A stretch of 64,000 nucleotides of DNA from Eledone cirrhosa. Lineage: Eukaryota. Shown one piece after another: positions 23,167 through 23,315 of the stretch. Under the pieces are notes generated by a model that was given only the letters and a program-made list of their open reading frames with translations, did not search any database and was not told the DNA's origin. The DNA lies in contig OZ024746.1 in NCBI GenBank assembly GCA_964016885.1, forward strand, positions 90,334,001 to 90,398,000, written 5' to 3'. A program made the translations under genes and the position numbers. The first letter of the stretch is position 1. Every line of letters starts with the position of its first letter.

Positions 23167-23172
<6 letters not shown>

Positions 23173-23315
23173 TCTGAAGACGGCATATATATGTGTTGGG
23201 TATGTATATTTAATTTTGATAGTTTGTATAATTTTGTATAATTTTGTACATAGATCTGTTGAATATGCATGCCAATTCTAACACATATATATCCTAGAAA
23301 CGATCGTTAAATAAT
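23167..23315 (+). ncRNA. Type I hammerhead ribozyme with intact core and ~116-nt stem II
   Basis: attattt-CTGAAGA(23174-23180)-stem II (atatatatgtgtt 23185-23197 / aacacatatatat 23280-23292)-GAAA(23297-23300)-CGATCG-TT-aaataat. Confidence 0.75.

Follow-up and report, generated by a model that had tools for sequence, protein, structure and literature searches.

A long-stem hammerhead motif in a Hydra-clade Penelope-like element of Eledone cirrhosa and the ends of its copies

The window (the whole 64,000-nt stretch of Eledone cirrhosa DNA analyzed here) holds a genuine hammerhead motif, a conserved variant with a long stem; both this kind of motif and the clade of its element are known, and the ends of its genomic copies are unusually informative. 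The island that carries it can securely be regarded as a short copy of the pLTR of an autonomous Hydra-clade Penelope-like element (PLE). Our preferred reading of the copies, to which we give a probability of about 0.6, is that the element RNA would start, capped, at stem I, that reverse transcription would be primed internally, and that full-length copies would come from a circle made by the hammerhead.

The long-stem motif in the window and across the genome

The motif has the type I order (CUGANGA, GAAA, NUH) with stems I, II and III all present, and is open at stem I (Table 1). The core nucleotides, the 7-bp stem I, the ~116-nt stem II and the palindromic stem III described in the original prediction lie where it had placed them, together with the perfect 13-bp helix (23185-23197 paired with 23280-23292), the G-U-rich inner helix and an imperfect stem II base, which in this copy reads C.A, G-U, G-C, C.C; its term "intact" is true of the core letters, and (TA)n tracts do flank the motif. 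Under the full motif rule (core, palindrome and 7-bp stem I, with a stem II of at most ~200 nt), there is one match in the window versus none in 100/100 dinucleotide shuffles, and the fold of the motif region has z = -4.68, with 0/200 shuffles equally good. It had been expected that searches assuming a short stem II would miss this motif, and the Rfam scan of the window indeed returned no hammerhead, whether at the gathering score or with E relaxed to 10; a short-stem hammerhead pattern gave 6 matches in the window, with 7.7 expected by chance. As had also been proposed, the 212-base island has no ORF, its longest ATG-started reading being 34 aa.

Table 1. Features of the island in the window; copy-end positions are counted from the predicted cut after 23308, with 23167 as -142
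Feature	Position	Strand	Remark
(TA)n target tract, left	23090..23168	.	(TA)n 3' of nearly all sampled copies
Short pLTR insertion, Hydra-clade Penelope-like element	23167..23378	+	modal 5' end -142 to first 3' end ~+70
Stem I 5' strand attattt	23167..23173	+	23167 = modal 5' end of short copies
Putative transcription start	23167	+	A of TTCATT in long copies
Hammerhead core CUGAAGA (C3-A9)	23174..23180	+	sequence
Stem II region, 116 nt	23181..23296	+	13-bp helix, then further G-U-rich helices
Core GAAA	23297..23300	+	sequence
Palindromic stem III CGAUCG	23301..23306	+	ACGAUCGU self-complementary, predicted duplex -10 kcal/mol
GUU triplet	U16.1 = 23307, U17 = 23308	+	predicted cut after 23308
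Stem I 3' strand aaataat	23309..23315	+	7 Watson-Crick pairs with 23167-23173
5' UTR part, up to first putative RT priming site (~+70)	23316..23378	+	
(TA)n target tract, right	23378..23398	.	sequence

The long stem II recurs throughout the genome. A loose pattern with the core halves 60-120 nt apart gave 12,141 matches versus 3 in the reversed control, and the fetched loci hold 124 distinct long-stem motifs, which make up three related subfamilies, with a stem II of mostly 90-116 nt, plus two 60-61-nt singletons; one singleton cluster belongs with subfamily 2. The sister subfamilies keep a stem II of 90-115 nt with compensatory changes, and hairpin length and loop drift from subfamily to subfamily. 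Among BLAST-picked sister copies, which confirm that the family copies sought by the original prediction exist, both core halves were scored in 23/30, the other seven being two clipped alignments and five copies with point changes. We aligned 29 rows, i.e., the window copy and 28 of 35 representatives (left out were two with long poly-C, three near-duplicate or damaged, and the two 60-nt singletons). In this alignment 96% of cells are paired, versus 26-55% in slid controls, and changes are two-sided in 9/34 pairs; stem I position 3 is U-A in 15 rows, U-G in 7 and C-G in 4, and the first full stem II pair is G-C in 12, A-U in 11 and G-U in 5. A check for covariation had been suggested, and it came out divided: compensatory changes are present, but covarying pairs are no more numerous than under shuffling (141 of 500) in these rows, which were picked by a core-containing rule and represent few independent events in only about three related subfamilies.

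The stem II base lacks the customary G10.1-C11.1 pair and has C.A instead in nearly all of the 29 rows. G10.1-C11.1 is a common feature of type I hammerheads and not an obligatory one, since mismatches occur at this place in Hydra hammerhead ribozymes (HHRs) and in the active axolotl HHR_Amex2, which remains cleavage-competent with a U.U pair (PMC7229834). In File S2 of Craig et al. 2021 (PMC8557442), the core halves of Hydra hammerheads are at most 26 nt apart, the longest row of the file has a stem II region of 54 nt, and by our count the stem II base is mismatched in 15/26 Hydra rows. Because of these mismatches the imperfect base is already known as a trait, and what is new is the length: with 116 nt here and 90-115 nt in the sisters, the stem II region of the window copy is more than 4 times that of any Hydra row in the list. 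The HHR is also unlike that of Hydra-1_Obim in the same paper. It resembles the PLE hammerheads of Cervera and de la Pena 2014 (PMC4209133) in its type I form, its pLTR location, its palindromic stem III implying dimer cleavage and its many solo and opposite-strand paired copies, but stem II as described there has ~6-8 bp, G10.1-C11.1 and one 5' bulge, whereas the stem here has the C.A pair, a C.C internal loop and ~40 predicted pairs. We found no description of a long natural stem II in the PLE hammerhead literature searched, which did not include subscription papers and bioRxiv supplements.

Other hammerhead families in the fetched loci have stem II regions of 14, 15, ~33, 36 and 60-61 nt (L005, L006, L012, L027, L034, L125, L134, L203, L205), and several of them share with the long form a pyrimidine mismatch at the fourth stem II position. 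The window holds a further type I hammerhead-like motif at 41469-41517 (+), whose stem II is short (GAAC/GTTC) and whose stem I has 7 bp; a TA tract follows ~35 nt downstream, and the motif is probably the end of another Penelope-like family. The neighborhood of the island contains tandem and inverted repeats between TA tracts (21000-22330, 22406-22858, 23659-23935), of which the segment 22440-22810 recurs in 11/374 fetched loci; the segment 23405-23511 recurs in 8/374. Farther along the window are a 3.6-kb TA-rich tract (25316-28928), a 26-nt satellite in 84 copies (30750-32937) and a 38-nt satellite in 40 copies with 97% matches (52019-53544). The repeat landscape resembles that of octopus-type cephalopods.

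The coding element and its short copies

The island had been called isolated, which is true at the window locus only, for it is a high-copy repeat: 6,780 exact 25-mer matches were found genome-wide versus 0 in the reversed control, and the island gave 49 matches of 98-100% identity in the 40 scored of 169 candidates. No other part similar to the Penelope-like element was found in the rest of the window. Long copies extend ~6.7 kb upstream through a TG/TA-rich UTR to an open ORF of 812 aa, making a unit of ~6.0-6.9 kb; the second priming site (~+207) and an ATG at +361 are present in longer copies only. The pLTR features comprise partial tandems, inverted 5' parts and a tail on one arm, and nearly all sampled copies have a (TA)n target at the 3' end. 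Pieces of the repeat also occur in contigs of four runs under three organism labels, which are uninformative on ends.

The 812-aa protein carries the motifs YRDD, VYK..YIG, RWR, DKT, CxCx5C, CxxC and CxH, with DK[TS] in 28/30 long relatives and DKG in one, i.e., the Hydra-clade motif set with no CX2-5CxxC linker. The ORF alone had no Pfam match, and searches of Pfam and PDB gave nothing significant. In an alignment of 26 proteins (the ORF and 25 of 150 listed relatives), 4/26 match RVT_1 and 1/26 matches GIY-YIG, all weakly, the profile of the 26 matches a retron RT (E 0.005), and the protein-atlas neighbors of the ORF are annotated with RVT_1/GIY-YIG on part of their members. Judged by protein motifs and the (TA)n target, which are the marks given by Craig et al. 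2021 (PMC8557442), this young retrotransposon is a member of the Hydra clade; Neptune and Naiad were considered and rejected, as the motifs fit Hydra. It shares with the Hydra-clade PLEs of that paper (including Hydra-1_Obim) the C-terminal GIY-YIG-type domain, the motifs RW(K/R), DKT, CxCx5C, CxxC and CxH, the (TA)n target, a type I HHR near the 3' end and the mismatched stem II base, and differs from them in its unit length, which is mostly <3 kb there.

The relation between short and long copies bears on what the island is. The original prediction had rightly recognized a type I hammerhead motif within a retroelement, and had further proposed a separate non-autonomous element whose cargo was a pre-miRNA-sized hairpin. 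Such a self-propagating retrozyme would accord with about half of the terminal arms being short, with the internal promoter that they would bear if the start site discussed below holds, and with the argument that retrozymes stem from pLTRs (bioRxiv 10.64898/2026.07.22.740005). We nevertheless consider it highly improbable. The five commonest haplotypes are found in short and long classes alike, for 59/86 short copies at least one of 61 long copies is no more than about one change away, and the longer copies run into the open RT/GIY-YIG-type ORF. The short copies are mostly solo or inverted, unlike the 170-400-nt head-to-tail arrays of retrozymes, and no ORF-independent non-coding head-to-tail repeats of that size were seen. 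The cargo claim fares no better, as Rfam gave no miRNA match at the gathering score and the hairpin, which belongs to the pLTR of the autonomous element, drifts between subfamilies as described above. Since the haplotypes are common to both classes, the island is best read, from these sequence comparisons, as a by-product of the coding element and not as an independent retrozyme. Although it resembles non-LTR retrozymes (PMC7229834) in the type I HHR, the short AT-rich unit and the link to PLEs, those are tandem non-coding repeats expressed as circles, whereas the island is a fragment of a coding element. The likely role of the hammerhead motif is in cutting and circularizing the element RNA, not in carrying a small-RNA cargo.

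Copy ends and the probable start of the RNA

Ends were scored in 61 arms; these come from 40 stretches that take in the first matches of contig C1. At the 3' side, 27/61 arms end at +70 to +73 and 23/61 at +210 to +212 as scored; eight more were scored at +39, being shortened by a subfamily indel, and inverted pairs often hold one 3' end of each kind (~+70 and ~+207). The 3' boundary at +39 and most of the apparent 5' boundaries at -198, -231, -264, -290 and -367 were rejected as ends because they are subfamily indels. The two 3' ends mirror Poseidon, an element of the green anole in which the RT starts at two internal sites downstream of the HHR and thereby makes the tail (Frangieh et al. 2024, PMC11167929); the tail is ~137 nt here versus 30-40 in Poseidon, and the putative start sites lie in the 5' UTR here and in the ORF there.

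At the 5' side, 29/52 core-reaching terminal arms have their first base at the 5' strand of stem I or slightly within it and 23/52 read through, an arm starting at stem I is present in 19/40 stretches, and a separate scoring places 25 arms within -148 to -138. Among exact matches genome-wide, 890 start at -142 (including -141 starts preceded by a chance A, as in the window copy) and 1,417 continue past it. The mark of an RT copying the cap is an untemplated G. The starting base is preceded by G in 29 of the first 100 copies at -142 versus 9 of the first 100 at -141 (p = 5e-4), and after WWATA the ratio of G to C is 35 to 65 versus 390 to 4,745 in the background (p 5e-15). Starts at C are numerous, which suggests that some 5' ends lie at -143 as well, and 7/18 G junctions have a symmetry that allows the G to be taken for a templated C at -143 of the other arm. 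The sequence TTCATT at the putative start fits an initiator consensus. From these ends, the RNA likely starts at stem I, at -142. The literature search found no cap-derived G signature and no 5'-end pile-up described at PLE hammerheads (subscription papers and bioRxiv supplements lay outside its scope), and the available text on Poseidon (PMC11167929) describes none comparable to the sharp pile-up at stem I here.

The long copies behave differently from the terminal arms (Fisher p 1e-12): among ORF-linked junctions reaching -138, 0/24 and 0/34 stop there (0/58 jointly; the 34 are 33 scored and L364 read by eye). The 58 junctions come from 70 of 307 exact matches, with units of one array counted separately, and a BLAST-ranked set gave 0/19 stops at the same site. 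These junctions also bear on an alternative origin of the -142 end, which could be the downstream product of 3'-end cleavage or an element-endonuclease DNA nick at ATT. This is consistent with an AATAAA ~10 nt upstream in all three subfamilies, with the ATT preference of the anole enzyme (PMC11167929), and with the 489 joints of a SINE-like repeat at the -142 site, most of the 30 read having a duplicated target, which could mark the site as a nuclease or priming target. However, neither cleavage nor a nick accounts for the extra G, and a DNA nick should also strike the upstream repeats, where 0/58 stop; we therefore regard this origin as unlikely and a transcription start as the better reading of the -142 end.

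Several features of this site may be recorded in their own right. The AATAAA lies 9-14 nt upstream of the putative start in long copies, a placement reminiscent of retroviral LTRs whose R region is very short. The adjoining repeat is a tRNA-like SINE ending in AGTAGAAACA, mostly in sister subfamily 3; template jumps were ruled out for its joints, which in most of the 30 read (L282-L311) are SINE insertions inside long copies. A similar SINE repeat lies in the window at ~42570-42920 and 51400-51710. Four inverted junctions (L115, L116, L135, L314) contain short stretches in which the first 13-20 nt of the element are copied again in tandem, a pattern that suggests several rounds of re-priming at the end of the cDNA.

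Cleavage, full-length copies and the proposed cycle

In the monomer, UUUCUG is predicted to pair with UAGAAA, which would extend the hairpin and block the core; the core-open fold is predicted to be worse by 4.1 kcal/mol at 149 nt and ~8 at 212 nt, the predicted pair probability of stem I is 0, and the monomer hammerhead is accordingly predicted to be inactive. By a rough sum (-88.0 vs -86.6), an 8-nt palindrome duplex (-10 kcal/mol) would approximately offset the opening of two monomers, and this modeled balance fits the dimer rule for PLE hammerheads (PMC4209133), in which a loop 1-loop 2 contact is frequently not recognizable. The 5' ends do not accumulate at the cut site: 27/30 candidates are GUA/GUC variants, the other three fit microhomology, and ORF-linked copies within 3 nt of the site number 0/39 and 1/56 in two sets. 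Full-length copies starting at the cut site, an idea from locus L039 (start +2), were ruled out because the ends scatter.

Two arrays were read, each with three full tandem units, which within one array are not independent. In one, 2.4 kb compared among the three full units and an inverted part shows 0-2 nt of difference; in the other, one frameshift is common to all three. The junctions seen are seamless, and a circular or seamless multimeric template would give arrays of this kind, but linear multimer RNA or unequal crossover can also make them.

It is possible, though clearly less probable than our preferred reading, that the element and its start are as proposed but the hammerhead is unneeded, with long copies made by linear read-through of arrays or by RT jumping between RNA ends, and with the hairpin acting as a promoter, stability or protein-binding element. 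The lack of 5' ends at the cut site and the inactive predicted fold speak for this, as does the anole element, in which HHR mutants did not impair in vitro insertion, no reads ended at the HHR cut site and uncut RNA serves as template (PMC11167929); Naiad elements, moreover, thrive without a canonical HHR (PMC8557442). However, linear RNA from -142 should leave some full-length copies starting there, which is the case in 0/58. The seamless array junctions also argue against it, and so do the persistence of core and palindrome across subfamilies, the stem I series from U-A through U-G to C-G, and a cut triplet that in the copies read is either GUU or GUA and rarely GUC.

In the preferred chain, transcription would begin at the first base of stem I, giving a capped RNA that opens with the hammerhead. 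A lone hammerhead would stay uncut, because its stem III is too short and, by prediction, the base of the long hairpin would zip up its core. The element endonuclease would then nick (TA)n DNA and the RT would begin within the RNA at ~+70 or ~+207; on linear capped RNA it would run off the 5' end after ~212 or 350 nt, often copying the cap as an extra G and leaving inserts like the window island. Read-through RNA with two hammerheads would instead pair its palindromes, be cut at both and be ligated, and an RT on the resulting circle would pass the same point without a stop, yielding full-length and multi-unit tandem copies.

Beyond this chain, we tentatively propose, at somewhat less than even odds, a two-template Penelope cycle in which hairpin-locked capped RNA gives strong-stop-like inserts, hammerhead circles give full-length and rolling-circle tandem copies, and the ~100-nt stem II is the off-switch; internal priming near the RNA 5' end would then make circularization necessary. 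A circular-intermediate model for PLE hammerheads was put forward by Cervera and de la Pena (PMC4209133), and the role of the hammerhead in endonuclease-bearing PLEs is stated to be unclear (PMC8557442). With thousands of copies, open ORFs and sharp ends, the element makes that model directly testable. Elements reported without a hammerhead, such as the "half-core" Naiads (PMC8557442), merit re-checking with long-stem descriptors. If the two-template reading is true, the need for circularization would explain why Penelope-like elements have retained the hammerhead, and a stem II of ~100 nt would mark a class of hammerheads missed by current descriptors.
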